Below the pieces are notes generated by a model that was given only the letters and a program-made list of their open reading frames with translations, had not been told where the DNA came from and did no database searches. A DNA stretch of 64,000 nt from Planctomycetota bacterium (lineage in GTDB: Bacteria > Planctomycetota > UBA1135 > UBA2386): contig JBKAGP010000001.1 in NCBI GenBank assembly GCA_046290465.1, forward strand, positions 3,200,001 to 3,264,000. The letters are read 5' to 3'. Shown one piece after another: positions 6,338 to 51,331 of the stretch. Position numbers and translations under genes: made by a program. Numbering within the stretch: the stretch's first letter is position 1; every line of letters begins with the position of its first letter.

Positions 6338-7234
6338 TCAGCGGCGCCGGCGCGGCTTCGCGTAGGCCTCGAGGTCCTCGGCGACGCGCCGGATCTCGGC
6401 CTCGGTGACCAGGTCACCCTTGGTGCGACGCAGCATCTCGACGAACCAGGCGCACTCCCATTCGCTGACGGGGCCGCCGATGTTCTTGCCGTCGTTCTTG
6501 TCGCCGGTCTGCGCGTTGGAGCTGAGCAGCTCCTTGCCGTCGGGACCGACGATCACCGACCAGGGCAGGCCGCCGCTGCGCTTGCCCTTGTAGCGTTCGT
6601 TGATCTCCTTGCCGTGCAGATCGCGGTCGACGTCGATCATCACGTCGATCCAGCCACGCTGGTAGATCGGCCCCGTCACCTCTCGCCCGAGGAACTCCTC
6701 GAGCACCTTGCACCAGCCTCACCAGGGGGCGTCGAAGCGGATCAGGATGTTGCGACCGGTCTTGCGGGCAAGCTTCTTGGCGGCTGCGAGCTTCTTCTCG
6801 GCGTCGACCGGCGCACAGAAGTGCGGCTTGACGGCCGCGAGCAGCGCCTTGCCGTCGACCTTGCCTTCGTCGAGGAACACGTCGGACGACAGCGTCGCCA
6901 TCGTCTTGCCGGCGGCGTCCTGCACGACCAGCGACGGGCGCTGCACGCCCTTCCAGAGTTCGGAGTTGAGCGAGACGACCTCGAACTCGTAGAGGAACGT
7001 GCGCGAGATGCTGCGCTCCCGCTTGATCAGCTTCTCGAGGTCCTTGCCGTCCTCGGGCAGGACGACGAGCACGCGCTTGTTGTGCATCGCAGCACGCGCG
7101 CGCGCCTTGCGAAGCTCGGCAGTCAGCGTCGGCTGCGTCTGCTGCGTCTGCTTCTGCGGGGTCTCCGACTCCTGTGCCGGCGCGACCGCCCCGAGGGCGA
7201 GCACCAGCGCGAACGGATACAGTCTGTGTTTCAT
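6338..7234 (-). CDS. Exported thioredoxin-fold selenoprotein (UxxC), in-frame UGA at 6719-6721
   Basis: ATG 7234 with GGAGG RBS; signal peptide; reads ...ILIRFDAPW-TGA-GWCKVLEEFL... in frame into ORF 6338-6706; GGLPW cis-Pro motif; SECIS-like hairpin. Confidence 0.85.
6685..6704 (-). promoter_or_regulatory. Candidate bacterial SECIS
   Basis: GCUCGAGG-AGUU-CCUCGGGC hairpin; loop starts 22 nt after UGA. Confidence 0.65.
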
Positions 7235-7272
7235 GGCTACCTCCTGCGGTGCCATGAGCATACCCGTCGCGG

Positions 7273-9102
7273 TCAGGCGATCGGCAGTTCGAGCACGAAG
7301 CAGGCACCACCGCCCGGGCCGTCCTGCAGATACAGCTCGCCGCCGAGGTCGCGGGCCAGGCCGCGCGCCAGCGGCAGCCCGAGGCCGACGCCGGGCACGT
7401 CGTTGCTGCCGCCGCGCACCGCGCCGCGATCGAACGGCACGAACACCGCTTCGCGATGCTCCGCGGCCACGCCCGGGCCGTGGTCGCAGGTCGTGAACGA
7501 GACTTGCCCGTCGCGCACGTCGATCGACAGGTGCACCGTCTTGTCGTGCGCACCGCTTGCGTACTTCGCCGCGTTGTCGGCGAGGTTGAACAGGATCTGG
7601 CCGACCGCCTCCTCGTCGGTCTCGAGCACCGCCGGCCTGGCGTCGTCCTCGAAACGCACGTCGAGCATCATGCCGACCTCGCCGAGGCGCCGGCCGATCA
7701 CCGGCACGACCCGATCGACGACCGCGTTGACGGCGACACGTTCGCGCCGCCCGGTGAAGCGGCCCTCCTCGAGGCGCGACCACGCCAGCACGTTCTCGAC
7801 GACGCGCGCGAGGCGGTCGGACTCGCGCTGCAGCGTGGTCAGGTATTCGCGCTGCGCGTCGGGGTCCTTGACGACGCCGTCGGCGAGCATCTCGCTGTAC
7901 ATCCGGAACGTCGTCAGCGGTGTGCGCAACTCGTGCGTCACCGCCGACGCGAAGCGCGCCCGCCGTTCGCCGAAGCCGATTGCGGTGCGCAGCGTGAATC
8001 CGAGCACGCACAGGCCGAGCAGCGTCACGCCCCACGTCGTCCACAGGATCGCGTTGATCGGCAGCTCCGCTTCCATCACCGGCCCGCGGAACTCGGCCTC
8101 GAGCCGCGCCGGCACCGAGGCGAGCATCGACGGCTGCTCGGCGGCGCTCGGCTCCTCGCAGCGCACGATGCGGGCGCAGCCGTGCTCGAACAGATCGGTC
8201 ACCAGCGCCAGCAATTCGCTCTCGAGGCGCGGCCAGTCGACCAACACGGCCTGCATGCGCGCGGCGCCACCGCTGACGACGCGCCGCGCGAACACCAGTT
8301 CGGCGCCCCCGCCGTCGAGCCAGACCGGCACCATCGGCCCGACCGCGTCGTCCTCCTTGCCGAGGTAGCCGCCCGGATTGCCGTAGTTGGCGACGTCGTT
8401 GGCGATGTTGTTGCGGAACGCACGCTGACGGTTGTCGAGCTCGTTGACGCTCTGCATCGTCTGCGCCTGCGACGCCAACTGGGCGCGCGGCCGCGGCGAC
8501 TCCGGCGTCTCGACCTGCTCGACCGGCGCCGGCGCCTGTTCGATCCCGGCGACATTGCCGCCGAGCTTGGGCAGCTCGAGGATCGCACACGAGAGCTTGC
8601 TGCTCAGGTCTTCGACCGGCAGCGAGCCCTGCAGCTCCAACAGCTTCTTGCGGGCGCGGTCGAGCACGTCGCCGGAGATGCCGTTGGCCTCGGCGAAGTC
8701 GCGTTCGTTGCCGGTCGGGCTCTGCGGGCTGCAGAGGCCCTGCGAGGTCACCTCGAAGTGCAGCGGGAACAGCTCCGACTCGGCGCCGAGCAGCGGCGAC
8801 TGCACCAACACCTGGTTCGGCGCGATCTTGTTGAAGCCGCTGGTCCACGCATTGGAGGTCCGCGGGAACGGGTCGTAGTCGGTCGCCGGGCGCAGCGATT
8901 CGCGCACCAGCTGCGGTGCCAGCCAGCTGTCCATGCGCCACAGCGCCAGCCGCAGCCGCTCCTGCCGCGCCGCCTCGCGGCGCGCGTCGCGTTCGTCGAG
9001 GTCGAGCTGCAGCAGCGTGACCGTCAGCCACGACAACACCGCCAGCATCACCGCGGTGACGCCGACGAACCACCACAGCGCAGCGCCGCGAGGGGAGCTC
9101 AA
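7273..9102 (-). CDS. Membrane sensor histidine kinase
   Basis: TTG start overlapping the regulator stop; two TM segments; H box THELRTPLT, N box NLADNAAKY, DHGPG, GLGLGL. Confidence 0.9.
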   Translation of the reverse strand: MSSPRGAALWWFVGVTAVMLAVLSWLTVTLLQLDLDERDARREAARQERLRLALWRMDSWLAPQLVRESLRPATDYDPFPRTSNAWTSGFNKIAPNQVLVQSPLLGAESELFPLHFEVTSQGLCSPQSPTGNERDFAEANGISGDVLDRARKKLLELQGSLPVEDLSSKLSCAILELPKLGGNVAGIEQAPAPVEQVETPESPRPRAQLASQAQTMQSVNELDNRQRAFRNNIANDVANYGNPGGYLGKEDDAVGPMVPVWLDGGGAELVFARRVVSGGAARMQAVLVDWPRLESELLALVTDLFEHGCARIVRCEEPSAAEQPSMLASVPARLEAEFRGPVMEAELPINAILWTTWGVTLLGLCVLGFTLRTAIGFGERRARFASAVTHELRTPLTTFRMYSEMLADGVVKDPDAQREYLTTLQRESDRLARVVENVLAWSRLEEGRFTGRRERVAVNAVVDRVVPVIGRRLGEVGMMLDVRFEDDARPAVLETDEEAVGQILFNLADNAAKYASGAHDKTVHLSIDVRDGQVSFTTCDHGPGVAAEHREAVFVPFDRGAVRGGSNDVPGVGLGLPLARGLARDLGGELYLQDGPGGGACFVLELPIA

Positions 9103-9803
9103 ACGGCCTCCCCCTGCGCCAGCATGTAGCCCTTGCCGCGAACCGTCAGCACGACCTGCGGCGCATCGGATGGATCGGCGAGCTTGCCGCGCAGGTTGAC
9201 GATGTGCATGTCGACAGCACGCGTCGACGAGTCCCCGCCGGGCGGCAGCCCCCAGACGCGCTCGAGGATCTCGCTGCGTGCGATCGCGCGACCGCGGTTC
9301 TGCACCAGGTAGCGCAGCAGTTCGGCCTCGCGCTCGGACAGCTGCACGCGGCTCTGGTCGGGACGCTCGATCTCGCGCCGCTCGAAGTCGATCGCGCGGC
9401 CGGCGACCTCGACGCGACCGACGTCCGACGGCCGCTCGGCGCTGCGGCGCAGCACCGCTTCGACGCGCGCCAGCAGTTCCTTGGACGAGAACGGCTTGAC
9501 CACGTAGTCGTCGGCGCCGGTCTTGAGCCCGTGCACGCGGTCCTGCTCGGCGCCGCGAGCCGTGACCAGGATCACCGGCAGCTGCGGCCGCGCCCGGCGC
9601 ACCTCGGCGAGGATCTCGAAGCCGTCGCGGCCGGGCAGCATCACGTCGAGCACGATCAGGTCGAGCTCGGCACCCAGCGCGGTCTGCATGCCGTCGTCCC
9701 CGTCCTCGCACGCGAGCACGGTGTAGCCGGCAAACTGCAACGCATCGACCAGCCCGCGACGGATCGCGGGGTCGTCTTCCACGACGAGGACGGTCTTCGA
9801 CAT
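9099..9803 (-). CDS. OmpR/PhoB-family response regulator
   Basis: VLVVEDD, LDVMLPGRDG, GADDYVVKPF, TRAVDMHIVNLRGKL, TVRGKGY. Confidence 0.95.
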   Translation of the reverse strand: MSKTVLVVEDDPAIRRGLVDALQFAGYTVLACEDGDDGMQTALGAELDLIVLDVMLPGRDGFEILAEVRRARPQLPVILVTARGAEQDRVHGLKTGADDYVVKPFSSKELLARVEAVLRRSAERPSDVGRVEVAGRAIDFERREIERPDQSRVQLSEREAELLRYLVQNRGRAIARSEILERVWGLPPGGDSSTRAVDMHIVNLRGKLADPSDAPQVVLTVRGKGYMLAQGEAV

Positions 9804-9850
9804 GAGCGGTCAGTCTACGTGGTTGTGGTTCGGGGCGGGGCGGGCGGCCA

Positions 9851-11197
9851 CTACTTGCGCACCTGCTTTCGGGCCTGCCGGACGTTGGCGGCCGGGGCCT
9901 CCTTCCGAGGCGCCTGCGGAGCCTTCTTCTCCGCCTTGATCGCCTCCTCCTGCTGGACCGGCTCCTCCTGGACCGGCTGCTGCTGGACCGGCTTCTCTGA
10001 CTCGGCCTTCTCCACGACCGACGGCGCCCGGCGCTCGAACCCGCGGCTGCGCGCCTGCGCCCGCACCGACTCCAGCATCGCCTCCTCGAACAGCTTCTCA
10101 CCCTTGCCGGCGAGCTTCTTGCGTTCGGCGAGCACGAAGGCGTCCCGCTGCTTGCCGATCTCGGCGACCTGCTTCTGGATCGCGCCGCGCTTCTTGGCCA
10201 TGCCGTCGACGTGCGCCTTCAGCTCCTCGACCGTCATCTTCTGCAGCGCCTCCGGCAGGTGCTCGGTCTTGACCGACGTCAGCACGAACTTCGGATCCTT
10301 GCAGGCATCGACCAGGTCGTAGCGCGGGTTGTGGTACAGGTTGCCGGCCTTGGTCTGGCAGCGTTGCGCGACGGCGCCGAGGTTGAGCGTGGCCGCGTTG
10401 CGATCCTGGGTGACCTGGTTCTGGGCCCACTGCACGCGGTTGGCGCCGTAGACGACGTAGGTCGAGTTGAGCTGGGTGCTGAGGTCCCGCAGCTGCTTGT
10501 CGAACGGCGTCTCGATCACGACCTGCTGGTTGTGTTCGATCGCGGTGAACTTGCCATCGGCGAGGCGGGCGACGTGGCGCCAGCCCTCGACCTCCGGCTT
10601 CTGCTGGCTGCCGCAGAAGATCGTGTTGACCAGGATGCCGCGCTGGATGGCGCGCTTCGCCATCTCGTCGGCGGCGAACTGCGGATCCTGCGTCGCCGGC
10701 TCGTTGCCGGCCACGAAGATCAGCTTGAGCGCCTGCTGGTCCTTCGACCAGTCGAGGTCGTCGAGCGATCGCTTGACCACGCGCGCGACGTATTCGCTGC
10801 CGCCGTTGGTCGACAGCGCGAACAGCTTCTGCGAGACCAGGTCGAGGTCGTCGGTCAGCCCGGTCTGGATCGCGACGAAGCCGCTGTCCTTGCCGTAGAG
10901 CGGGCTGCCGTAGGTCAGCAGGGCCACGCGCAGACGCGGCTGCGGCTGCAGCGTCGCCATGTCGTTGACGATCGACCAGAGGTTCTGGCGGGCCGAGTCG
11001 ATCAGGCCCTGCATGCTGCCGCTCACGTCGAGGCAGAGCACCAGGTCGATGTCGCGCGACGGCGACACTTCGCGGACCTCCGACACCACGGGCGCAGCCT
11101 CCGGGTCGGCGATCGGACGCATCGGAACGGACGGGAACGGCGCCTGCGCGAGGCTCATGCCGGCGAGCGCGAACAGCGTGGTCGTGGATCGGAACAT
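9851..11197 (-). CDS. Secreted vWA-domain protein
   Basis: Signal peptide; MIDAS motif DLVLCLDVSGSM; low-complexity C-terminal tail. Confidence 0.85.
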   Translation of the reverse strand: MFRSTTTLFALAGMSLAQAPFPSVPMRPIADPEAAPVVSEVREVSPSRDIDLVLCLDVSGSMQGLIDSARQNLWSIVNDMATLQPQPRLRVALLTYGSPLYGKDSGFVAIQTGLTDDLDLVSQKLFALSTNGGSEYVARVVKRSLDDLDWSKDQQALKLIFVAGNEPATQDPQFAADEMAKRAIQRGILVNTIFCGSQQKPEVEGWRHVARLADGKFTAIEHNQQVVIETPFDKQLRDLSTQLNSTYVVYGANRVQWAQNQVTQDRNAATLNLGAVAQRCQTKAGNLYHNPRYDLVDACKDPKFVLTSVKTEHLPEALQKMTVEELKAHVDGMAKKRGAIQKQVAEIGKQRDAFVLAERKKLAGKGEKLFEEAMLESVRAQARSRGFERRAPSVVEKAESEKPVQQQPVQEEPVQQEEAIKAEKKAPQAPRKEAPAANVRQARKQVRK

Positions 11198-13596
11198 CAG
11201 CGGATCTCCTTCTTCGGGTTCTTCTTCTTCGGGGTCGTCTTCTTCTGGGTCTTCTTCTTCTGGGTCGTCTTCTTTTGGGTCTCGTTCTGCTGCTGCGCCG
11301 GCGGCTTCCCATCCGGCACCTTCGGGGTGGCCGGCACGACGACGGGGTTGGTCACCAGCACGTTCTTGCCGTCGACCTCGACGAGGATCTCGCCGGGCAT
11401 CGACAGCAGGCCGCAGCGGCCTTCGGACTCGAGGCGGCGCGCCAGCGCAAAGTAGGCCGGACTCGCCAGCGCGATCGTCTGGTGCGGCGTGATCGTCTGC
11501 GCGACCACGCTGTTGCCGTCGACCCAGCGGTTGCCGCGCTTGAAGAAGCCGCGGTCACAGACCTGCTGGATCAGGCTCAGCTCGACGCGGTTGCGGTCCT
11601 GGTCGAGGTAGACGTTGCGCGGGTTGGCGTAGAGCTGCGCCTTCTGCTTCCAGAGGTTCTCGCCCTGGTTGACCGCGGCCTTGCCGCTGCGGGTCACGAC
11701 CGCCCGCCCCTTCAGGCTCGACTGGCACGCCATCGACAGCGCGTTCCAGTCGTCGAGGCGGCTGCCCTCACGCGCCAGGAACGCGGTGTATTCGCCGAGC
11801 ACGCCGAAGCGCGTCGACAGCCGCAGGATCTCGTCGCGCAGTTCGCGCAGGCGCGGATCCGAGAACGGGTCGCGCTGCGGCGTGCCGAACGGCGCGCCGA
11901 GGTCGCCGCCCTGCTGGCGCAGTTCGTCGACCAAGAACGCGATCTGCCGGCTGGCCCACAGCCGCGGCACGAACGCGTGGCGGGTCGACGCCGAGCGGAC
12001 CGGCAACGTGAAGCGATAGCGCTTCTCGCCGGCGGGCGTGCGGCCGTGCAGTTCGAACGTCAGGTCGTCCTCCCCGCGGTACTGCCCCATCAGCACCAGC
12101 TGCTCGCCGGCGAACAGGTCGTTGATCCGGCGCGGCAGCACCTCGGCGGTGCGCGCGACCGTGGCCCCCTGGGCGTCGATCGTGCGCAGCACGGGGCTGG
12201 CGAGCACCGGGTGGTCGAGCCGCGCGAACGTGCGCGCGACCTTGACCTCGACGTCCTCCTCGGGCTGCACGTAGGTCGTCACCGCGCGGGTCTCGTCGGC
12301 GATCCGGTCCAGCAGCGGCACGTTGACGTCGTTGCCGACGCCGAAGCAGAACACGCGACGGCTGTGCTGGTTGCCCTTCTCGATCAGCCGGAACAGGTCG
12401 CGTTCGCTGGTCGGCCCGACGGTCGGCAGGCCGTCCGTCAGGAACAGCACCAGCGGCAGCGTGTCCGGCATCACCGGCGCACGCAGCGCCTCGAGCAGCG
12501 CGTCGTGGATGTTGGTGCCGCCGTGCGGCCGGATGTCGTCGAGGAAGCGGCGCGCCCGCGCCGTGGTCCGTTCGTCCTTCGCGACCGGCTGCTCGAACGC
12601 GCGGCCGACGTCGTTGCCGTAGTGGATGATCTGGATGCCCTCGCCGTCGCCGAGGCCCTCGAGGACCTGCAGCGCCGCCGCCTTGGCCTGCTCGAGCTTG
12701 CGCCCGGCCATGCTGCCCGAACGATCGAGCACCAGCGTCACCTCGCGGCGCAGCGCCTTGGCGCGGGCCATCTTCGGCGCGTTGGCGAGCAGCAGGAAGT
12801 AGCCGCCGCCGACCGTCGGGTCGGGATAGGTGAACATCGCCGCGGTCGGCTCGTCGTTCTTGCCCGACGTCGTGAAGCACAGCCGGAACGCACCGGGATC
12901 GCGCTGCGAGCCCTCGGTCACCCGCAGCGTCATCTTCTTGGCGCCGCGACGCGTGACGTGCAGTTCGTGGCTCGGCGAGTAGCAGACCCCGATCGTCGCG
13001 CGCGCCTGCAGGTCGACCGTGATCGACCACGGCGCCTCGAGCGTCAGCATCTCGCTGCGCGGCAGCAGGTAGTCGACGCGATCCCCGTCGACCTCGAGCA
13101 CGTGATCGTAGGTGAGCCGGATCTTCTGGCGGCCGTTGGCCGGCACCGGGAAGACGCTGCTGCGCAGGCAGCCGTAGCCGGCGAACTCCAGCAACGCCGG
13201 GTCCTTCAGCCGCGACGTGATCTGGTCGTAGAGCTTGCGCGCTTCGTCACGCGGCAGGATCTTCGCGGTCGGCTCGCTCGCCGGGCCTTCGAACGTGAAG
13301 TTGCTGACCGCCGCGCCGTCCGGCACCGGCAGCAGCAGCGCCGCCTCCTGCTGGCGGCCCGCCGGGTTGTGCAGCTCGAACTCGAGCGTGGTGGTCGCGG
13401 CCCGGTCGCGGATCACGACGTCGGCCTTGGCCGCCTGCACGCGCACCGGCGGGGTGCCGTACGGCGCGAGCACCGCGCGGCTCGGCACCACCCATTGGTG
13501 GCGCCACGGCCCCGTGGCATGGGGCGATTGGGACGGCAGCAGGGCTGCGAGCGCTGCGGCCGCCAGCGCGATTCCGGCCTGGGTTGCTTGCTTCAC
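11197..13596 (-). CDS. Secreted VIT + vWA domain protein (inter-alpha-trypsin inhibitor-like)
   Basis: GTG start with GAGAGG RBS; VIT motifs (LPVPDGAAVSNF, DPALLEF); MIDAS LDRSGSM, GGTNIHDAL, FLTDGLPTVG, FGVGNDVN, PRLWASRQI. Confidence 0.9.
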   Translation of the reverse strand: MKQATQAGIALAAAALAALLPSQSPHATGPWRHQWVVPSRAVLAPYGTPPVRVQAAKADVVIRDRAATTTLEFELHNPAGRQQEAALLLPVPDGAAVSNFTFEGPASEPTAKILPRDEARKLYDQITSRLKDPALLEFAGYGCLRSSVFPVPANGRQKIRLTYDHVLEVDGDRVDYLLPRSEMLTLEAPWSITVDLQARATIGVCYSPSHELHVTRRGAKKMTLRVTEGSQRDPGAFRLCFTTSGKNDEPTAAMFTYPDPTVGGGYFLLLANAPKMARAKALRREVTLVLDRSGSMAGRKLEQAKAAALQVLEGLGDGEGIQIIHYGNDVGRAFEQPVAKDERTTARARRFLDDIRPHGGTNIHDALLEALRAPVMPDTLPLVLFLTDGLPTVGPTSERDLFRLIEKGNQHSRRVFCFGVGNDVNVPLLDRIADETRAVTTYVQPEEDVEVKVARTFARLDHPVLASPVLRTIDAQGATVARTAEVLPRRINDLFAGEQLVLMGQYRGEDDLTFELHGRTPAGEKRYRFTLPVRSASTRHAFVPRLWASRQIAFLVDELRQQGGDLGAPFGTPQRDPFSDPRLRELRDEILRLSTRFGVLGEYTAFLAREGSRLDDWNALSMACQSSLKGRAVVTRSGKAAVNQGENLWKQKAQLYANPRNVYLDQDRNRVELSLIQQVCDRGFFKRGNRWVDGNSVVAQTITPHQTIALASPAYFALARRLESEGRCGLLSMPGEILVEVDGKNVLVTNPVVVPATPKVPDGKPPAQQQNETQKKTTQKKKTQKKTTPKKKNPKKEIR
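11210..11282 (-). repeat. 15-nt-period repeat encoding a Lys-rich tail (KKTTQ KKKTQ KKTTP KKKNP)
   Basis: ttcttcttc-tgggtc-type units. Confidence 0.7.
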
Positions 13597-13681
13597 CGGG
13601 GCACCTCTCTCGGTCTGTTGGGTCACGTCGGGGTCCTGTTCTCTCTGTCGGACCAATAGACGTTGCAGACGCCCTGCTTTG

Positions 13682-13699
13682 GGTAAGGGGTCGGTAAGG
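13682..13699 (-). promoter_or_regulatory. Candidate OmpR-family binding site (direct repeat with 11-bp period) upstream of the VIT/vWA-RR-HK operon
   Basis: GGTAAGG at 13682-13688 and 13693-13699. Confidence 0.45.
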
Positions 13700-13703
13700 C
13701 GGC

Positions 13704-13742
13704 TTGACGGATCGCGGCGACCGACTACTTTCTGGCACAAAG
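13704..13742 (+). promoter_or_regulatory. Sigma70-like promoter with overlapping palindromic operator
   Basis: TTGACG(13704)-16 nt-TACTTT(13726); palindrome CTTTnTGnCAnAAAG at 13728-13742. Confidence 0.55.
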
Positions 13743-13761
13743 CCCAACCCCCGGGAGCCCC

Positions 13762-14388
13762 ATGGAACTCCGCGACGCGATCGACCAGATCACGACCATT
13801 CGCAGCCAGCTCGCTGCGACCGAACACCTCAAGAGCCTGCGCGCCGTGCCGGTCGCGTTCTCGGGTCTGCTGGCCATCGCCGCCGCGTTCGCGCAGGTGC
13901 TGTGGCTCGAGAACCCGCTCGACTACCCGCGGCGCTACCTGCTGATCTGGTGCGGCGCGGCGATCGTCAGCGGCATGCTGGCCACGATCGTGGTCGCGCG
14001 CCGCACGCTGCGCTGCCCGGGCGAGCTCAGCGCGGCCAACGCGTGGCAGGCGGTCCGACAGTTCGCACCGAGCCTGCTGGTCGGTGCGATCGTCACCTGG
14101 TTCGTCGTCGGCGAGCAGCCGCAGTTGCTGTGGCTGCTGCCGGGCCTCTGGCAGCTGCTGTTCGGCCTCGGCAACCTCGCGGCGCACCGCCTGCTGCCGC
14201 CGCCGGCGTTCTCGGTCGGACTGATGTTCGTCGTCACCGGTGCGTGCTGCCTCTACCTCGGCCCGCGCGCGCTCGAGCCGTGGGCGATGGGCGTGCCGTT
14301 CGCCGCCGGCCAGCTGGCGCTCGCGGCGATCCTGTGGTGGCACAACGAACGCAACGAACCCTTCCTCGCGATGGAGCGAACCCGATGA
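13762..14388 (+). CDS. Multi-TM membrane protein coupled to a wHTH regulator
   Basis: About six hydrophobic segments; ATGA overlap with the next gene. Confidence 0.8.
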   Translation: MELRDAIDQITTIRSQLAATEHLKSLRAVPVAFSGLLAIAAAFAQVLWLENPLDYPRRYLLIWCGAAIVSGMLATIVVARRTLRCPGELSAANAWQAVRQFAPSLLVGAIVTWFVVGEQPQLLWLLPGLWQLLFGLGNLAAHRLLPPPAFSVGLMFVVTGACCLYLGPRALEPWAMGVPFAAGQLALAAILWWHNERNEPFLAMERTR

Positions 14389-14771
14389 GAGCCGAAGAAA
14401 AGGACGACGGCCGCTACGCGTACGACGGCCTGGACCGCGTGCTGCACGAGAAGGCCCGACTGGGCATCGTCACGTCCCTGGCGGCCAAGGCCGACGGTCT
14501 GCTGTTCACCGACCTGAAGTCCCTGTGCCACCTGACCGACGGCAACCTCTCGCGGCACCTGACAGTGCTGCAGGAGGCCGGCATCGTCGAGATCCACAAG
14601 GGCTACAAGGGCAAGCGCCCGCAGACGCTATGCCGCCTGAGCGACGACGGCCGCAAGCGCTACCTCGACTACATCCACGTGCTCGAGAACGTGCTCGCCG
14701 ACGCCGTCGAGGCGTCCAAGGCCGCGCGCAAGTCGCGCCGCATCCTGCCGGACGGGTTCAGCCCGGCGTAG
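14385..14771 (+). CDS. Winged-helix transcriptional regulator (HTH_34/ArsR-MarR-like)
   Basis: LDRVLHEKARLGIVTSL, LTDGNLSRHLTVLQEAG, KGYKGKRPQT. Confidence 0.85.
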   Translation: MRAEEKDDGRYAYDGLDRVLHEKARLGIVTSLAAKADGLLFTDLKSLCHLTDGNLSRHLTVLQEAGIVEIHKGYKGKRPQTLCRLSDDGRKRYLDYIHVLENVLADAVEASKAARKSRRILPDGFSPA

Positions 14772-14813
14772 CTCATCCTCGGCAGCCCGGCGTAGCCCGT
14801 CCTCGGCACCCGG
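14759..14813 (+). repeat. 24-nt tandem duplication of the regulator gene 3' end, including the stop codon
   Basis: cagcccggcgtagctcatcctcgg / cagcccggcgtagcccgtcctcgg / cacccgg. Confidence 0.7.
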
Positions 14814-14822
14814 TCGCCCGGC

Positions 14823-16136
14823 TCAGTTCTCGCGATCGAACGACACGTCGACGCCGTTGTCGCGCAGCGCCTGCAGCAGGCTCTCGTCCGGATCGTCCAC
14901 CAAAGGCACGCCGCGGTCGAAGCGCAGCTGCAGCGACCGCAGCTTGTGCGCACGCCGCAGCGGCTCGAGCGAGTCCCGACCGCGCAACCGCAGCGTGACG
15001 CGTTCGAGGCTCGGGTGGCGAGCGATCGCCTCGAGCACGCGTTGGTCGAGCCACCCGTGCAGGAACACCGCCTTCAAGCGCAGCGCGCCGAGCAGGTCGA
15101 CCACCGCCTGGTAGTGGGTCGCGTGGTGGAAGATCAGCTCCTCGAGGTCGGCGAGCCGCTTGAGGTCGGCGATCGTCGACGGCGTCATCACGTGGTGACC
15201 CAGACGCAGCCGCTGCAGGCCCTGGGGCAGCCGCCGCATGAAGCGGTCGTCGAAGTTGCTCTCGTCGAGATCGAGATCCACCAGCGCCGGCATCTGCTCG
15301 AACGCGGCGAACGCGTGCTCGCCGAGCGCGGGCGTCTTCTCCGAGTAGCCGGTCATGAAGCGCACGGCGAGGTGGCCGACCGTCGGCAGCTTCGCGAGCT
15401 CGCGGTAGACCGTCGCGGCCGAGACCGGACAGCCGTTGAGTTCGAGGTGCGTCAGGCGCAGTGGCGCCAGCGCCTCGAGGAAGCCCGACCCGATCGTCGC
15501 CTGATGGATGCGGAGTTCGCGCAGCGCCGGCAGCCCGGTCAGCGCCGCCGCAGCCTCGGCATCGACCACGGTGCGGCCCGGCAGCGCCAGCGAGCGCAGC
15601 CGCTCTGCGCCGGCGAGGCTGCGCAGGTGCGGCGCGGTCAGCTTCATCTCCGCCGGCAGCTGCAGGACCTCCAGGGTCGTCAGCGTGCCGATCGGCCGCA
15701 GCGCATCCGGGTGCTCGTCGACCTTCTGCCAGGCAGCTCCTTCGCCGCGCGGGTTCAGCACGATCAGCTGACGCAACGCGCGGAACCGTTCGACGTGCGC
15801 GAGGTCGGTCGGGTCATCGAGCACCAGCAGCAGCGACGGCGCGTCGACGTCCAGCGCGAGCATCTGCTCGACGCTCGTGCACGCCTTGGGCTTGGGGATC
15901 GGCGCGGGGTCCTGGACCTCGCGCTCGCCGGCCTGGTGCGGCGTGCGACCCGACGACCACCAGAGGGTCACCGCGACGACGCCGATGCCAAGCAGCGCGA
16001 CCGCCGCCCCGAGCCAGCTACGCCGCGTCGACGGCGCCGCCGCAGGCGACGCCCCGGGGCGACCGAACACCTCGGCGAGCGACGCGTCCAGCAGCCGTTC
16101 GCGCGCGTTGGCCAGATCCTGTTCTCGATCGCTCAT
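14823..16136 (-). CDS. Single-TM protein with extracytoplasmic leucine-rich repeats; probable anti-sigma factor
   Basis: ATGA overlap with the ECF gene; TM segment WLGAAVALLGIGVVAVTLWW; repeated LxxLxxLxL motifs. Confidence 0.7.
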   Translation of the reverse strand: MSDREQDLANARERLLDASLAEVFGRPGASPAAAPSTRRSWLGAAVALLGIGVVAVTLWWSSGRTPHQAGEREVQDPAPIPKPKACTSVEQMLALDVDAPSLLLVLDDPTDLAHVERFRALRQLIVLNPRGEGAAWQKVDEHPDALRPIGTLTTLEVLQLPAEMKLTAPHLRSLAGAERLRSLALPGRTVVDAEAAAALTGLPALRELRIHQATIGSGFLEALAPLRLTHLELNGCPVSAATVYRELAKLPTVGHLAVRFMTGYSEKTPALGEHAFAAFEQMPALVDLDLDESNFDDRFMRRLPQGLQRLRLGHHVMTPSTIADLKRLADLEELIFHHATHYQAVVDLLGALRLKAVFLHGWLDQRVLEAIARHPSLERVTLRLRGRDSLEPLRRAHKLRSLQLRFDRGVPLVDDPDESLLQALRDNGVDVSFDREN

Positions 16137-16648
16137 CGGTTCCTCCTCCGCTCGATACACGCGTGCAGCGCCGACCGCAGCCGACGCAGCGCGCTCTTGA
16201 CGCCGTGCTCACTGATGCCCAACCGCCGCGCCGATGCCGCCCGGCCCGCACCTTCGTGGTAGGTCCGGTGCAGCAGCCGCCGGCTGCGCTCGGGCAGCTC
16301 GTCGATGCAGGCGCGCAGCGCGTCGACGTAGTCGTCGGCGCCGTCGTCGCCGCACTGCTGCTGCCACAGCTCGTCGGCGTGCTCGACCTCGCGGCGGGTC
16401 ATGCGGCAGCGCTGCGACTTGAGCCAGCGGTGCCGCGCCGTCGTGCGCAAGAACGAGAACGCCGCCGCCGGCGAAGACGCGTCAAAGCCGGGCCGCTCGA
16501 GCGCGACGACGAACGCCTCCTGCACGAGGTCGTCCGCGCTGGCGTCGTCGGCGCCCAGCACACGTAGATAGCGCCAGAGCGCGGCGCGGTGCCGCTCGAG
16601 GGCGGTGCCGACGTCGTTCGCGGTGGCGCGTTGTTCGGGGATGGTCAT
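16133..16648 (-). CDS. ECF-type RNA polymerase sigma factor
   Basis: ADDLVQEAF, FLRTTARH (region 2); LRACIDELPERSR, GVKSALRRLRSALHACIE (region 4). Confidence 0.9.
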   Translation of the reverse strand: MTIPEQRATANDVGTALERHRAALWRYLRVLGADDASADDLVQEAFVVALERPGFDASSPAAAFSFLRTTARHRWLKSQRCRMTRREVEHADELWQQQCGDDGADDYVDALRACIDELPERSRRLLHRTYHEGAGRAASARRLGISEHGVKSALRRLRSALHACIERRRNR

Positions 16649-16711
16649 CGGGGTCACGACGCCTGATCCCCCGGGATCGACCAAAGGGTGCAGCGTTTCC
16701 GACGCCGCGGA

Positions 16712-16999
16712 CTACTTGCGCTTCGCCGGTTCCCCGACGGCTTCGAGCGCCGCCAGCAGCTGGTCGACGCCGACCTTGTCGGGCTCGTAGCGTACCGAGA
16801 ACTGCTTCACGTTGGCCCGGATGTAGACGTCGTAGACGCCGTCGATCTGGCCCAGTTCGCCACGCACGGTGGCGACGCACTGCAGTCAGGGCGAGATGTC
16901 GAGCACGAGGTCGACCTGCTCGAGGTTCTCCGGCGGCGGCGGCGCGCTGCACGCGACCAGCGCGGCGAACAGGACGAACGGGGAGGTGCGGAGGTTCAT
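16712..16999 (-). CDS. HMA-domain (CopZ/MerP-like) lipoprotein selenoprotein 1, UGA at 16886-16888
   Basis: Manual translation MNLRTSPFVLFAALVAC SAPPPENLEQVDLVLDISP-U-LQCVATVRGELGQIDGVYDVYIRANVKQFSVRYEPDKVGVDQLLAALEAVGEPAKRK*; lipobox LVAC; absent from the ORF track. Confidence 0.85.
16853..16882 (-). promoter_or_regulatory. Candidate bacterial SECIS
   Basis: CAGU-gcg-UCGCCAC-CGUGC-GUGGCGA-ACUG; loop 17 nt after UGA. Confidence 0.7.
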
Positions 17000-17027
17000 G
17001 ACGGGGCCATGCTACGACGGCCCCGTC
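17000..17027 (-). promoter_or_regulatory. 9-bp inverted repeat enclosing a TAGCAT -10-like box directly upstream of HMA selenoprotein 1
   Basis: GACGGGGCC-N10-GGCCCCGTC. Confidence 0.45.
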
Positions 17028-17072
17028 GATCGGTTCGACATCGCCCGATACCGCGCCCGACCGCCCGCTCGC

Positions 17073-19658: not shown

Positions 19659-19818
19659 TCGTTCTGTCTGAGGGGTCGAGGGGAGAGGGGTCGCACAAGG
19701 TAACGGAGCGCGAGCCGACGCCAAGGGCGAGGGCCTGGCAACGGCCCCAAATCGGCCGGCGCGCCCGATCCGATCCGAGAACGGCCTTGCGACTCCGCGC
19801 CCCCGCCCCGCTCCGCCG

Positions 19819-20349
19819 CTACCGGCCCAGCAGCTCGGCGAACTCGCCGGCGGAGAGCGACAGCACCTCCTCGGCGACGATGCGGTCGTCGGCGTCCACC
19901 AGGTAGCTCGGCGAGCCCCAGATGACGCCGACCTCCCAGGCCTCTCGCGCGCCGGCCGCGTCGGCCAGGATCGCGAACGGCAGCTGCTCCTCGTCGAGGA
20001 ACGCCAGGGTCTCGTCGACGCTGGCGTCGGTCACGCCGAGCACGAGCAAGCCGTCGCCACGATGGTCGGCCGCGATCTTCACGAGATGCGGCAGTTCGTC
20101 ACGACAAGGGCCTCAATGCGGCTGCAGGAACACGACCAGCCGCCAGCGCACGTCCGGCGGCACCCAGTCGTCGGGCGCGTCGCGCGCGCCGTCGTCCTCG
20201 TCGGGCGGCAGCAGCCAGGCGCCGTCGGACAGCGCGGGCGCGGTGCGACCAGCGAGGTCGGTGTTGCCCCAGTCGCGCCAGAGCGACCGGAACGAGGACG
20301 CGCAGCCGGTCAGCAGGACCAGCGACGCGAGCAGCAGCGTGCGAAGCAT
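19819..20349 (-). CDS. TlpA/ResA-like redoxin lipoprotein, selenoprotein (HUGPC), UGA at 20113-20115
   Basis: Lipobox LTGC; GRTAPAL; LVVFLQPH-TGA-GPCRDELPHLVKI... continues in frame into ORF 19819-20082 (LLVLGV, LPFAILAD, SYLVDADDRI). Confidence 0.87.
20069..20092 (-). promoter_or_regulatory. Candidate bacterial SECIS
   Basis: GCCGC-AUCU-CGUGA-AGAU-c-GCGGC; loop 29 nt after UGA. Confidence 0.6.
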
Positions 20350-20441
20350 GGCGCGAGGATACGAGCCCGTCCCGGTTCGGTTGCGCGCGATCGTGGGTCG
20401 GCGCGAGGTCGCACCGCGGGCGCCCGTCCGGGCGCTCCCCA

Positions 20442-40080: not shown

Positions 40081-40108
40081 AGTCTGGTCCCCTCCGTCTA
40101 ACTGCTTT

Positions 40109-40134: not shown

Positions 40135-40183
40135 GAGCCTTTACAGGAGCAGTCCCTTCAGGGAGATCCCGGTAGACACAGTT

Positions 40184-40207
40184 CGAGCGCGGGAAAACCC
40201 GCGCTCG
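40184..40207 (-). terminator. 10-bp hairpin after the lipoprotein gene
   Basis: CGAGCGCGGG-AAAA-CCCGCGCTCG; no clear U-tract. Confidence 0.5.
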
Positions 40208-40216
40208 CGCACACGA

Positions 40217-40675: not shown

Positions 40676-40861
40676 GGTTTCGGTCTCTGGAAAGGTCCGG
40701 GACGAAGCATCCCGGCGCAGGCTTGAAGCAACCGCCGTGCCGCCCGAACGGGCCCACGGCGCGCGTGCCACCGACGGTTCGGGCCGCGCCGGGCGAAGCG
40801 TGTCGCGCCAGCAGGACACCGGGAGGAGCCCCCCGGCGACACGGCGGCTACCAGCGCACGC

Positions 40862-43796: not shown

Positions 43797-43953
43797 CTCC
43801 CCATGATGGCTGCGTCGAAGTCCCCGTGCCATCCACGAATCCGGCGTTCGGCAGCCGGAGGCATCGACGCAGACCAGCGGACCGGAGCACACCGCGGGGC
43901 AAGGCCAGCCGTTCTGCGTCGACGTCACCGCGAGGCACGGTATCGTCGTCTTC

Positions 43954-46155: not shown

Positions 46156-46180
46156 CCCGCGTCGGGGCTAGCATGCGGAC

Positions 46181-46780: not shown

Positions 46781-46923
46781 ACGCCGCGCCACCTACGCCC
46801 CACGCCCCAGCGCCGGCACACGGCGTACCGAAGATGCGCGCCCTGCTTCCGTAAAGCGGCCGGCAGGTTGCACTTTTGAAGCATGCGAACGGATTGCCGG
46901 GAGGCACCGCTCACCTAGGATCC

Positions 46924-46945
46924 GGTCGCGACGAACGTCGCGACC
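46924..46945. promoter_or_regulatory. 10-bp perfect palindrome upstream of the collagen-like gene
   Basis: GGTCGCGACG-AA-CGTCGCGACC. Confidence 0.4.
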
Positions 46946-47002
46946 AAGCCCCTACGCGCGAGGAGAGATTCGCGCGTCCCCTTCTCCCAGAGGAACCGTT
47001 CC

Positions 47003-50000
47003 ATGCGTCTGTACGCGTCCCTGCTCTGCGCCGCGCTTGCCCTCACGGGCATCGCCCGCGCCCAGTCCACCCCTCCGTCCACGCTGCCGTTCCAGGCCCG
47101 GCTCACGCTGCAGTCGGGCGGCGTCGACGTGAACGCCTTCCTGCCGATCTCGTTCCGCGTCTACACGCAAGCGGTCGGCGGCTCGCCGCTCTGGGTCGAG
47201 ACGCACCCGCTGGTCGAGGTGAAGAACGGTCTGTTCAAGGTCGAGCTCGGCAGCCTCGTCGGCTTCCCCGCACAGCTGTTCGAGAACGGAGACCTCTACC
47301 TCGGCATCCAGGTCGCGACCGACAACGAGATGGCGCCGCGCACGCGGATCTCGTCGCAGGCCTTTGCCCAGGTCGCGAAGAACGCCATCGACGTCAAGAA
47401 CCAGGACATCAACCCCAACAGCGTGACGGTCAACGGCGTGCCGGTCATCGACGCCGGCGGCAACTGGGTCGGCCCGAACAGCGGCCTCGTCGGCCCCCAG
47501 GGCCCGGTCGGCCCGCAGGGCCCCACCGGTCCGCAGGGTCCGCAGGGCGCGCAGGGTGACGCCGGCCTGCAGGGCGCGACCGGCCCGCAGGGACCGCAAG
47601 GGGATCAGGGCATCCAGGGCCCAATCGGCCCCATCGGTCCGCAGGGTCCGCAGGGCGACCCGGGCATCCAGGGCGCCGTCGGCCCGCAGGGCGATCCCGG
47701 CATTCAGGGCCCCATCGGCCCGATCGGTCCCATCGGTCCGCAGGGCCCGCAGGGCGATCCCGGCGCCGCCGCGGCGCGCTACCTCGTCGCTCCGACGCTG
47801 ACCGACGGCGCGACCCACACCAGCATCCAGGCCGCCATCGACCAGGCCGTGCTCGACGGCTTCGGCACCGGTAACCAGACCAGCATCCAGGTCCGTCCCG
47901 GCTCCTACACCGAGGACGTCACGCTCGTCTCCGGCATCCACGTCTCCGCCGTCGTCGGCGCCAAGTCGTTCGCGACGCGCATCGCCGGCCAGGTCACGCA
48001 CACCAGCGGCGTCGTCTCGATGCAGGGCATCGACATCGACGCGCCCAGCGGCGACGCGCTGACGCTGTCCGGCGCCACCGCCCCGACGCAGCTCTACCTC
48101 AGCAACTGCGTCGTCTACGCGCGCGGCAACGACAACGCCCTCGAGCTGTCGCTCCCCGTCGCCAGCTCGTCCGGCCTGATCTTCGACAACGTCAACTTCC
48201 GCATCGTCGGCGGCGGCGCCGGCATCGCCGTCAACCTGCTCAGCGGCACGCTGCAGGGACGCAGCGGCACCTTCTGGCCCACCGCCCCGACCACCCCGTC
48301 GATCGCCATCAGCGGCACCGGCGCCAACCGCGGCCGCGCCTGGCTCAACAGCTGCGACATCTTCGGCAAGATCACGGTCATCGACGAAGGCGAGTGCTCC
48401 GTCTCCGGCGGCCAGATCCGATCCGGCCTCGGCTTCTGCGTCGAGGATTCGTCGGCCGGCACGATCGGCCTCTACGACGCCTTCCTGCAGCCCGACCTCG
48501 CCTACGCCGGCGAACTCGTCGTCACCGACGGCGACCTCGCCTACGGCCGCCTGACCTACAGCAGCCCGCTGCAGACCATGCCCGCCGCCGCGTTCCTGCT
48601 GCCCGGCTCGGGCCCCACGGGGCCGCAGGGTCCGCAAGGCGTCGCCGGTCCGCAGGGCCCGCAGGGCGATCCCGGCGTCGCCGGAGCGCAAGGCCCGCAG
48701 GGTGACGTCGGCCCGCAAGGTCCCGTCGGCGCGACCGGCCCGCAGGGCCCGCAGGGGGACGCCGGCCCGATCGGCCCGGTGGGCGCGACCGGCCCGCAGG
48801 GCGACCCCGGCCCGCAAGGCCCGGCCGGTCCGCAGGGCCCCGCCGGCGCCGACGGCGCCGCCAGCGCGCGCTACGTCGTCGGCATGGCGTCCGGCTTCGG
48901 CGTCACGCACACCAGCATCCAGGCCGCCATCGACCAGGCCGTTCTCGACGGCTTCGGCGGCAGCAGCCGCACCGCGATCCTGGTTCGTCCCGGTAGCTAC
49001 ACCGGCAACGTCAACCTCGTCGGCGGCATCAACCTGACCGCGCTCGTGCCGGGCAAGTCGTTCGCGACGCAGATCCTCGGCAACGTGACGCACACCGCCG
49101 GCGTGACCTCGATGATCGGCATCGACATCAACGCGACAGCCGGCGGCGACGCCCTGACCGTCAGCGGCGAGAACGCGTCGACGCAGCTCTACCTGAGCGA
49201 CTGCGTCGTCTACGGCTACGGCGTCGACAACGCGGTCGAACTCGACGTCACGACGGCGGGCAGCTCGGGCGTGTTGTTCGACAACGTCAACTTCCGCATC
49301 GTCGGCGGCGGCGCCGGCGTCGCGGCCAACATCGTGCGCGGCACGATCCAGGGCCGCAGCGGCACGTTCTGGCCGACGGCGCAGACCACCGCGGCGATCG
49401 CGATCACCGGCGACGGCTCGGCCAACGGCAAGGGCCGCGCCTGGCTGCGCGACCCGGACGTGTTCGGCAAGGTCACGCTCACCGGCAACGGCGAGCTGCA
49501 GGTCGGCAACGGCCAGATCCGCAGCGGCGCCGGCGTCGCGATCGAAGACGCGTCAACCGGCCCGATCTCGATCGGTAACTGCTCGATCCAGTCGACGCTG
49601 CCGAGCGGCGACGTGTTCACGACCGACGGCGACCTGTTCTACACGGGCCTGACGTTCTTGAGCCCGTTCCAGACGGTGCCGGCTGCTGCGATGCAGGCGC
49701 CGGGGACGAGCGTGATGAGTGTCGAGGTGTTCAGCGGGCAGCTGAGCAATGACATCGAGTTCACCAGCAGTTCGAGCAACACATACATCAACGCCAAGTA
49801 CGACACCGTGCTGCAGAACACTGCGCCGACGGCGGTCTTCGACAAGCAGGCGGATGGAAGCTTCATTATCCGACGCGCTGGCGTGCTCACGATTTCACCC
49901 ACGGTGTTTGCTCAGGGTAGCTCGTTCCTTTCGGTCTTCATCAAGGTCAACGGGGTGACGGTCAGCCAACTTCTCGACTATGGAAACTCAGCGCCAAGCA

Positions 50001-50134
50001 CGCCTGCTGGAACACACCACGTGAAGGTAGACGCGAACGACGTCGTGGAAATCCAGATGTCTCCGAGCCTGATCACCAACATCATCGTTGGCGGCTACAA
50101 CCAGCTCTCCATGAAGTGGACGGGAATCAAGTAA
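47003..50134 (+). CDS. Secreted collagen-like surface protein with two Gly-X-Y tracts, two duplicated globular modules and a C-terminal beta domain
   Basis: Signal peptide; GPQ-rich tracts; duplicated [18 protein letters not shown]...VRPGSYT...[14 protein letters not shown]...[11 protein letters not shown] modules. Confidence 0.9.
47483..47767 (+). repeat. Collagen Gly-X-Y tract 1
   Basis: About 31 uninterrupted GXY triplets. Confidence 0.9.
48611..48862 (+). repeat. Collagen Gly-X-Y tract 2
   Basis: About 28 GXY triplets. Confidence 0.9.
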
Positions 50135-50979
50135 TGCACCCTCTCCCCACCATCGCGACGCTGGCGGCGCTGCTCCTCGCAGCCCCCACCCTCACCGCCC
50201 AACACAAGGAACCCGGCCAGTCCAGCAGCCAGACCTACTACATGGTCAGCACCGAGTTCGGCAGCGCAGAGGCCGCGACGTCCCTGCTCTACCAGCTCCA
50301 GGGCAGCCAGGGCAGCGGCGTGGTCAACGAGCCGCACGCGGTCTCGCAGACCTACCAGATGCGCGGCGCGTTCTACGGCGCGAGCACCGCGCCGGTGCTC
50401 GGCCAGCCGCGGCTGACCGCCGCGCGGCCGTTCTTCGTGCGGCGCATCAACAACGGGCAGCTGTCGCTGACCGGCACTGAGCTGTGGCTCGGCCCGACGC
50501 CGACGATCACCGTCGGCGGCCAGAACGCGACGGTCATCACCCGCACGGTCGACGAGATCGTCGTGTCGCTACCCGATCAGCCGGAGCCCGGCTTCCAGCC
50601 GGTGACGTTCAGCAACCCGGTCGGCACGACGACGCTCGAAGAAGGCGTCGGGGTGCTGCCCATGCTGCAGCGCCGCGAGCCGCTCAACGGCGTCGACCCG
50701 AACTACCTCCGGATCGACACGCTGCCGAACAACGTCGTGCTGCTGGCGCTCGCGACCGACCTCGGCCCGGGCATCCAGACGCTGAACTTCGGCTTCCAAC
50801 TGCTGCTGGACCCGAGCTCGGTGTTCTTCACCAACGCCTACTTCGTCGCCGACCCGGACGGCCGCACGATCATCCCGCTGCCGCCGTTCCCGCCGGGGAT
50901 GCTGCACGCGCAGGTGCTCGACGTCACCGCCGACCCGGACGACTTCCCGGGCTCGTGGACCAACGTGGTCTCGCTGTGA
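50134..50979 (+). CDS. Secreted IPT/TIG-like domain protein coupled to the collagen gene
   Basis: TAATG overlap; signal peptide; LSLTGTEL..PTITVGGQNATVI...EIVVSLP...VTFSNPVG. Confidence 0.75.
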   Translation: MHPLPTIATLAALLLAAPTLTAQHKEPGQSSSQTYYMVSTEFGSAEAATSLLYQLQGSQGSGVVNEPHAVSQTYQMRGAFYGASTAPVLGQPRLTAARPFFVRRINNGQLSLTGTELWLGPTPTITVGGQNATVITRTVDEIVVSLPDQPEPGFQPVTFSNPVGTTTLEEGVGVLPMLQRREPLNGVDPNYLRIDTLPNNVVLLALATDLGPGIQTLNFGFQLLLDPSSVFFTNAYFVADPDGRTIIPLPPFPPGMLHAQVLDVTADPDDFPGSWTNVVSL

Positions 50980-50982
50980 TCC

Positions 50983-51008
50983 CTGGCGCCGGCTGCCGCC
51001 GGCGCCAG
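50983..51008 (+). terminator. 11-bp hairpin after the collagen/IPT operon
   Basis: CTGGCGCCGGC-tgcc-GCCGGCGCCAG. Confidence 0.55.
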
Positions 51009-51028
51009 ATCCGGCTAGCATGCTCAGC

Positions 51029-51331
51029 ATGAAGCCACCGTCGATGCTGGGGTCCGCCGCCCTCACGATGCTGTTCGCCTCCTGCGGCTCCTCTCCGGCG
51101 GACGATGTCAACGCTACCGCCAGCGTGCAGCTGGTGCTCAACAAGGTCCCCGATTGAGCCAGCTGTTGCGCCACCGTGCGTGGCGTCATCAAGAAGCTCC
51201 CCGGAACGGGCAAAGTCGACGTGCAGCCGGACAATGCCGAGATCACCGTCGCCTACGACCCGGACAAGATCACGGTCGACCAGCTGCTCGAAGGCATGCT
51301 GATGGGCGGCCAGCCGGCGAAGCGCCGCTAG
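51029..51331 (+). CDS. HMA-domain lipoprotein selenoprotein 2, UGA at 51155-51157
   Basis: MKPPSMLGSAALTMLFASC GSSPADDVNATASVQLVLNKVPD-U-ASCCATVRGVIKKLPGTGKVDVQPDNAEITVAYDPDKITVDQLLEGMLMGGQPAKRR*; paralog of 16712-16999; absent from the ORF track; alternative start 51020. Confidence 0.85.
51168..51186 (+). promoter_or_regulatory. Candidate bacterial SECIS
   Basis: GCGCCAC-CGUGC-GUGGCGU; core 15-mer and offset identical to HMA selenoprotein 1. Confidence 0.7.

Follow-up and report, generated by a model that had tools for sequence, protein, structure and literature searches.

Why would four genes within a short stretch of a bacterial chromosome each carry a TGA codon at the place where the first cysteine of a CxxC motif belongs? 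The stretch, referred to here as the window, is the whole 64,000 nucleotides that were analysed, positions 3200001-3264000 of contig C1 in the genome of a marine Planctomycetota bacterium (G000), which consists of one contig of 6.59 Mb with 70% G+C. An earlier note on the window had proposed that the four genes, g1 to g4, encode exported selenoproteins in which UGA is read as selenocysteine (Sec, U). The analysis described here points to the same answer. Judged from sequence, it is highly probable that all four are intact genes for exported selenoproteins whose Sec insertion is directed by a hairpin with GU in its loop. Taken one by one, g1, g2 and g4 are almost certainly real selenoprotein genes, and g3 is likely to be one.

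The in-frame TGA codons and the hairpins behind them

The four in-frame TGA codons are located where the earlier note had placed them, with the motifs it had given (Table 1), and each replaces the first Cys of a CxxC motif. The reading frame and the domain continue past the TGA, as Pfam or NCBIfam alignments cross the U or begin at it in all four genes. In the Pfam comparison, residues 145-202 of g1 belong to PF13899 (Thioredoxin_7; 34.1 bits, cut-off 27). g3 belongs to PF00578 (AhpC-TSA; 37 bits, cut-off 26) and scores slightly below the cut-off of 26.6 for PF08534 (Redoxin; 25.9 bits). Both g2 (27.9 bits) and g4 (35.0 bits) exceed the cut-off of 24.8 for the heavy metal-associated domain (HMA, PF00403). 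The earlier division of the set into two redox catalysts and two metal-binding domains stands as far as domain membership goes (Thioredoxin_7, AhpC-TSA and two HMA domains); catalysis and metal binding themselves are predicted functions.

The genome has the machinery for Sec insertion. A tRNA-Sec was found (RF01852, 72.8 bits against a cut-off of 47) with the anticodon tca according to ARAGORN, together with selA (453.1 bits), selB (353.7 bits) and selD (352.1 bits), each above its cut-off. The selD gene carries one in-frame TGA of its own. Many genes of the genome, g1 included, also use TGA as an ordinary stop, which indicates local recoding and rules out a changed genetic code. A separate observation on stop codons is that coding-like frames end in TAG about as frequently as in TGA, an unusual pattern at 70% G+C; this comes from genome scans and not from real gene calls. 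Three of the four selenoprotein genes in the window stop with TAG.

How well are the TGA codons conserved? Each of the four proteins was compared in six frames with 41 related genomes. Matches to g1 were found in 39 of them, and all 13 strong hits from the same genus (53-70% identity) have exactly one in-frame TGA. The best hits from 30 of the 39 matching genomes were aligned, and the column APW[U/C]GWC holds U in 22 and C in 8 of these homologues. Nine genomes were left out, eight with E >1e-11 (G012, G026, G027, G028, G030, G035, G036 and G037) and G022, whose hit holds a TAG. Orthologues of g2 (54-62% identity) have one TGA each, and so do those of g4 in G014 (62%) and G007 (53%) and those of g3 in G002 (73%) and G011 (70%), where the U is kept. 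The corresponding column of the HMA family shows 26 U and 2 C among 28 aligned members from 17 genomes; the two Cys-type members are domains within reading frames of 451 and 743 aa. More distant TlpA-like hits carry the motif WxxW[U/C]xPC with 10 U and 6 C.

Independent contigs from the runs of four other studies span window positions 6300-20400 with about 98% identity. Among the 40 of 319 contig differences that are listed there are six substitutions in g1, and none of them falls at the TGA. The earlier note had named three findings that would count against it, namely missing Sec machinery, TGC or TGT at the TGA codons, and homologues without Cys at the aligned column. The first was tested with the tRNA-Sec, selA, selB and selD searches, the second with the listed differences in g1, and the third with the g1, HMA and g3/TlpA families, in all of which Cys occurs at that column; every outcome was favourable. 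The contigs of the other strains also show a 15-nt in-frame deletion in the Q/T-rich low-complexity linker of g1 (window 7139) and GC-rich repeat insertions of 16 or 24 nt in the spacer upstream of g2 (window 17053).

The earlier note had also described a hairpin with GU at loop positions 2-3 after each of the four TGA codons, and folding and searching recovered all of them. Counted from the U of UGA, the hairpin starts at offset 16 in g1, 13 in g2 and g4, and 23 in g3. A strict hairpin was defined as a perfect stem of at least 5 bp with a loop NGU.., starting at 8-30 nt. Such a hairpin is found at three of the four window sites, g3 being the exception, and at 15 of the 21 domain-validated Sec sites of the whole genome, compared with 6.3% of 20,000 random sense codons of the genome. 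The minimum free energy (MFE) z-scores are -2.30 for g1 and -2.95 for g3.

For g1, the hairpin is present in 20 of the 21 Sec forms evaluated (the exception is G029; G032 was not in this set) and in none of the 8 Cys forms. In G017 two pairs of the hairpin are changed on both sides, and G023 has one-sided changes. At the hairpin site the Cys forms read LEDWMA and the Sec forms LEEFLG, as though the RNA element influenced the encoded amino acids. The hairpins of g2 and g4 share an identical core of a 5-bp stem and the loop. In the HMA family alignment of 26 sequences, 24 of them distinct, base pairing holds in 94.4% of 144 cells, compared with 18-54% in slid controls. Two-sided changes occur in 4 of the 6 pairs (15 cells), and the covariation score was reached by none of 500 shuffles. 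In several cases an amino-acid change in the 5' arm is compensated by a synonymous change of an Arg or Gly codon in the 3' arm, which argues that selection acts on the RNA. At the position of the g3 hairpin, a hairpin with a CGUGC loop is found in G002, G011 and G039.

The E. coli fdhF-type selenocysteine insertion sequence (SECIS) has a GU-bearing apical loop, lies about 11 nt after the UGA and is bound by SelB. The window hairpins resemble it in lying inside the reading frame just 3' of the UGA, in having GU in the loop, and in the 10-20 nt from the A of UGA to the stem. They differ in having shorter, simpler stems without an identified bulged U, and they have no Rfam match.

Apparent signals for export accompany all four genes (Table 1). 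When the orthologues were read by eye, the hydrophobic N-terminus ending in AxAQ was found to be kept in those of g1, and the lipobox Cys in the aligned orthologues of g2 that reach the N-terminus. The lipobox Cys of g4 is kept in its orthologues as LAACG, LVACG and FAGCS, and the lipobox of g3 reads LTGC and LTSC in G002 and G011.

Table 1. Features of the four selenoprotein genes predicted in the window (positions are those of the window)
Feature	Position	Strand	Details and basis
g1, exported two-domain thioredoxin (Trx)-fold selenoprotein	6338..7234	-	298 aa, coding 6341-7234, stop TGA 6338-6340
g1 Sec codon UGA, U172, WUGWC	6719..6721	-	translation and homologue alignment
g1 SECIS-like hairpin, 9-bp stem, AGUU loop	6684..6705	-	V-L-E-E-F-L-G-R codons
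g1 type I signal peptide, A-x-A before Q	7175..7234	-	read by eye
g2, HMA-domain lipoprotein selenoprotein	16712..16999	-	95 aa, coding 16715-16999, stop TAG
g2 Sec codon, U38, SPULQC	16886..16888	-	translation and HMA family alignment
g2 SECIS-like hairpin, 7-bp stem, CGUGC loop	16857..16875	-	A-T-V-R-G codons
g2 lipoprotein signal peptide, lipobox L-V-A-C (C17)	16949..16999	-	read by eye
g3, TlpA/redoxin-like lipoprotein selenoprotein	19819..20349	-	176 aa, coding 19822-20349, stop TAG
g3 Sec codon, U79, PHUGPC	20113..20115	-	translation and orthologues
g3 SECIS-like hairpin, 5 + 4 bp, one bulged C, CGUGA loop	20069..20092	-	P-H-L-V-K-I-A-A codons
g3 lipoprotein signal peptide, lipobox L-T-G-C (C16)	20302..20349	-	read by eye
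g4, HMA-domain lipoprotein selenoprotein	51020..51331	+	103 aa, coding 51020-51328, stop TAG
g4 Sec codon, U46, PDUASCC	51155..51157	+	translation, orthologues and HMA alignment
g4 SECIS-like hairpin, 7-bp stem, CGUGC loop	51168..51186	+	fold and covariation
g4 lipoprotein signal peptide, lipobox F-A-S-C (C22)	51020..51085	+	read by eye

Related families and the selenoproteome of the genome

Are these genes new in kind? The three kinds represented here, a UxxC protein with a Trx fold, a TlpA/redoxin protein and a Sec-containing HMA protein, are already known; the four genes add new members to them, none captured by a curated model. Passages of a 2026 review (PMC13188914) describe UxxC selenoproteins of the thiol-disulfide isomerase-like (cd02966) and Redoxin (PF08534) families, as well as a UxxU metal-binding protein (NF041115), a UxxC cation-transporting ATPase and a CxxU Trx7/PDZ protein. 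The term 'Planctomycet' occurs nowhere in the main text of this review or of a 2016 survey (PMC5029168), whose supplementary tables may list such genes. A literature search for Planctomycetota selenoproteins, or for heavy metal-associated selenoproteins with a SECIS, returned nothing relevant, and here too supplementary tables may list members.

The AlphaFold model of g1 (pLDDT 89.1; below 50 for residues 1-34) has two Trx folds behind a disordered N-terminus. The WUGWC motif is located in the C-terminal Thioredoxin_7 domain, where U172 begins the helix 173-182 that follows the strand 162-168. The N-terminal Trx-like domain has no CxxC, and the same domain of a distant relative in G032 retains WCVWC. 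Like the Thioredoxin_7/DsbD-gamma/DsbH group, g1 exceeds the PF13899 cut-off, has a cis-Pro loop (GGLPW) and finds its best single-domain PDB matches for the C-terminal domain in 3fk8, a Xylella disulphide isomerase, 3f9u, a DsbD-like exported domain, and 7tkv, a DsbH-domain protein. It differs from the Trx7/PDZ (NF041199, CxxU) and VPGUxxT (NF041382/3) proteins in that Sec comes first (UxxC) and there is no PDZ domain, and none of the NCBIfam selenoprotein models matched it. The whole protein finds tandem Trx proteins like protein disulfide isomerase (PDI), namely 3idv, 3wt2 and ERp57. It shares with the eukaryotic PDI 'b-a' tandems (3idv, 3wt2) the two Trx folds in tandem, its own N-terminal CxxC being lost. 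The TM-scores are low (0.23-0.27), so the likeness lies in domain content only and not in arrangement.

In sequence databases 59 of the 65 homologues of g1 cover just 39-57% of the protein and are mostly stored as stumps of about 165-185 aa; the product of g1 itself is stored as a stump of 171 aa. The earlier note had expected standard gene callers to split or miss all four genes. This is borne out for g1, the only one of the four for which the stored entries were examined. Since the standard code fragments all four genes, and since these 59 homologues are partial, redox and metal chemistry of this type is absent from gene catalogues.

g3 shares its fold family (PF00578, PF08534), the position of Sec and apparent export with the TlpA-like/Redoxin UxxC selenoproteins. 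It differs from them in reading PHUGPC and not WxxWUGPC, in being a short lipoprotein, and in scoring below every curated NCBIfam cut-off: 30.2 bits against 123.15 for DsbE/CcmG (TIGR00385), 19.4 against 170 for ResA (NF002854) and 17.9 against 120 for the SelL-related family. At least five further TlpA-like genes in the genome have WUGPC or WUPPC.

g2 and g4 have the HMA fold of known Sec-containing HMA proteins, whose Cys prototypes are MerP and CopZ, and Sec is the first ligand of the metal-binding CxxC loop. In contrast to the known Sec-HMA proteins they are stand-alone lipoproteins with UxxC and not UxxU, and SPU or PDU replaces GMTC. They score below the cut-off of 95 for the UxxU metal-binding (seleno)protein NF041115 (g2 32.5 bits, g4 36.2 bits); the alignment of this model on g2 (residues 28-92) crosses the U. 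MerP (TIGR02052, cut-off 92.55) gives 24.2 bits with g2 and 37.9 bits with g4, for which it is the best-scoring named family.

Each of the five PF00403 matches found genome-wide is Sec-type. A copA-type ATPase is encoded 1.1 kb from a third HMA paralogue and on its strand, and a gene with two HMA domains (G000:C1:2991644-2992141, minus strand) has GMTUGGC in each domain, each with its own CGUGA-loop hairpin, and is located 8 kb from a second copA-type ATPase (3000084-3001799). At the scale of the phylum, 5 of 301 sampled genomes match g4 with E up to 1e-5, and TGA forms were found only in the source genome and one genome of the same family. Sec-type HMA forms were seen only in the taxonomic family of the window and one neighbouring family. 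Some relatives have two tandem Sec-HMA genes where the source genome has g2 alone: G010:C16 (L058/L077), G002:C103 (L057), G009:C5 (L056), G013:C35 (L100) and G024:C112 (L071/L090). The upstream copy of such a pair has the motif IUGGC and, in the portion seen, no lipobox.

How many other genes of the genome carry Sec codons? As the earlier note had suggested, coding frames were scanned for the motif, and 20 UxxC/CxxU sites with TGA were found compared with 4 in a TAG control. A scan for read-through TGA codons based on codon bias was dropped as a census, with 140 TGA sites against 139 TAG control sites. It did not distinguish true sites from junctions between genes in the same frame, so motif and domain tests were used instead, and because it missed the third HMA paralogue and selD the counts are lower bounds.

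Outside the window 36 candidates were collected. Pfam was run on 30 of them and NCBIfam on 20 (with 3 repeats); the two together cover all 36, not each candidate by both. A Pfam domain crosses the TGA in 16 of the 30. The families found are TlpA-like (5), other AhpC-TSA/redoxin or Prx-type (5), Thioredoxin_7 or DsbD-like (2), HMA (one site, the first domain of the tandem gene), MsrA (2), rhodanese (1) and FG-GAP (1). NCBIfam adds three candidates, an ArsC-family (seleno)protein over its cut-off and deiodinase-like and zinc-ribbon DG proteins below theirs. Once the four window genes, selD, the third HMA paralogue and the second site of the tandem HMA gene are included, the total is at least 26 Sec codons, spread over about 24 genes. 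Most candidates with a visible N-terminus have a signal peptide or a lipobox when their translations are read by eye.

The genome is unusually rich in selenoproteins. The window makes up 0.7% of it yet holds 4 of the roughly 24 selenoprotein genes, so the high local density claimed in the earlier note is real; the genes are scattered among unrelated ones and form no operon. The Sec codons are also clustered on a larger scale, about 10 of the roughly 26 supported ones lying within G000:C1 ~2.97-3.36 Mb (0.39 Mb, 6% of the genome, window included). Another of the genes found, a DsbD-like protein (G000:C1:4519981-4520796, plus strand), has a membrane part and a C-terminal Trx domain with the Sec motif FNUGSC, and is a possible electron donor to the exported UxxC reductases.

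Candidates without a family match across the TGA, in whichever of the Pfam and NCBIfam scans covered them, were not counted. They are located at 330867, 5243672, 5453429, 3133117, 3141743, 3355751, 1516015, 3076350, 5536339, 3548088, 4048604 (transposase), 4743133, 4533748, 6219125 (transposase), 5060358, 1368444 and 1401922. Some of them may be real selenoprotein sites.

Proposed roles and alternative explanations

How might the four proteins be made, and what might they do? Selenium incorporation, export, the client proteins, the identity of the metal and any advantage of selenium in an oxidising envelope are matters that we infer from sequence. It is proposed that SelB with Sec-tRNA(Sec) would be recruited by the short GU-loop hairpin starting 10-20 nt after the A of UGA, and that Sec would be inserted at the exposed N-terminal position of UxxC. 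g2, g3 and g4 would be exported as lipid-anchored lipoproteins, and g1 would be a soluble periplasmic protein. g3 may be a thiol:disulfide reductase of the TlpA/ResA type, and g1 may be a PDI-like pair of an inactive 'b'-type domain and an active UxxC 'a'-type domain; both would exchange selenenylsulfide/disulfide bonds with client proteins of the envelope. g2 and g4 may be MerP/CopZ-like HMA domains that hold a soft metal, with Cu(I) the likeliest, using one selenolate and one thiolate as ligands. Copper is favoured mainly because Sec-HMA genes lie near copA-type ATPases and because all five HMA matches are Sec-type.

Could the TGA codons be true stops, so that the genes are pseudogenes, split genes or assembly errors? 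Under translation table 11 each of the four does break into fragments, public collections hold the g1 family mostly as stumps of the length given above, and the g3 relative in G013 is decayed. These features fit with true stops, but a single TGA is found at the same column in orthologues of 53-73% identity from many independent assemblies, and conservation is equal on both sides of it. Moreover, distant homologues have Cys at the TGA column, Pfam domains cross it, and the parts 3' of the TGA have no N-terminal export signal of their own. The true-stop reading is largely refuted and must be regarded as very improbable. It is nearly as improbable that UGA is recoded in another way, for example if a suppressor tRNA inserted Trp or Cys, or if tRNA-Sec delivered Cys under selenium shortage. 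Sequence alone can't separate Sec from Cys at the ribosome, but all four Sec components are present in the genome, and a hairpin of the type bound by SelB tracks the TGA, which is an ordinary stop in many genes. The site is also that of the nucleophilic Cys of CxxC, and the homologous residue is Cys and not Trp. A different question is whether g2 and g4 are selenoproteins that act as redox proteins or Se/S carriers and not as metal chaperones, or that bind Hg(II) and not Cu(I). There is no copper or mercury gene beside g2 or g4, the best named family for g4 is MerP at 37.9 bits, and g2 is found in a conserved order with two thiol-redox selenoproteins. Against this, both proteins are HMA members above the Pfam cut-off, a copA-type ATPase is in the gene string of the third paralogue, and the tandem Sec-HMA gene is 8 kb from the second such ATPase. 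A carrier or mercury role is less likely than not, no search aimed at merA, merT or other mer-type genes having been made, and is far more probable than the two alternatives above.

Set against the view that the four are intact, exported selenoprotein genes with the roles proposed above are several observations. The hairpins of g2 and g4 are unexceptional by MFE z-score (-0.06 each), so the case for them rests on conservation and covariation, and since the hairpins lie within conserved codons, part of their conservation is at the level of the protein. The bulged hairpin of g3 fails the strict perfect-stem test. An Rfam scan of the window at the gathering threshold gave 0 matches, so no model caught the hairpins, and none of the four genes scores high enough for any curated selenoprotein family in NCBIfam. 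Orthologues of g3 were found in only 2 of the 14 other genomes of the genus, the G013 copy being a decayed N-terminal remnant, and the coding score 3' of the g3 TGA is low (0.11-0.26). The Pfam scan of neighbouring genes showed no metal-handling genes beside g2 or g4, and there are no RNA runs among the sequencing runs listed.

What would the selenoproteins mean for the organism? Heme-copper oxidase genes are present in the genome (488.8 and 377.8 bits). It is a tentative suggestion, somewhat less likely than its opposite, that marine, oxygen-respiring Planctomycetota forming a clade of family rank have come to rely on selenium for much of the thiol-redox and soft-metal chemistry of their envelope. 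Passages of PMC5029168 and PMC13188914 describe the most selenoprotein-enriched organisms as mostly anaerobic and name Deltaproteobacteria, Clostridia and Synergistetes as rich. If the suggestion is true, this would be a selenoprotein-rich lineage outside the mostly anaerobic groups named there as most enriched. Heme-copper oxidase genes together with at least about 24 selenoprotein genes, their products apparently mostly exported, would widen the anaerobe-centred picture. The novelty is modest in kind and larger in pattern, that is, an oxygen-respiring planctomycete lineage with a big, mostly exported selenoproteome in which all HMA domains are Sec-type. The lipoproteins of 95-176 aa are tractable for asking what benefit selenium has over sulfur in an oxidising compartment and in metal binding.

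Gene order and neighbouring genes

The Pfam scan of the neighbours showed that the four selenoprotein genes are separated by unrelated genes. Between g1 and g2 there are a histidine kinase, an OmpR-type regulator, two VWA/VIT proteins and an LRR protein, and a reading of the translation indicates that an ECF sigma factor is likely to be among them. g4 is flanked by a collagen-repeat protein on one side and by a CoxL/M-type molybdenum hydroxylase cluster on the other. The order g3, X, HMA, g1 is repeated on contigs of G002, G008, G009, G010 and G013. This conserved order of g3 (TlpA-like), g2 (HMA) and g1 (PDI-like) could mark a periplasmic selenium-based relay from reductase to metallochaperone.

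The interval between g2 and g3 is occupied by an 883-aa protein (17076-19724, minus strand) that belongs to no Pfam family, and for which a protein-atlas look-up gave sub-threshold STAS-like and MinC-like structural hints only. On contig G002:C103 the distance from the g3 hit to the HMA hit would leave room for a gene as long as this one. Directly upstream of the neighbour of g4 there is a collagen triple-helix protein of 1043 aa (47003-50131, plus strand; PF01391, 90.2 bits).

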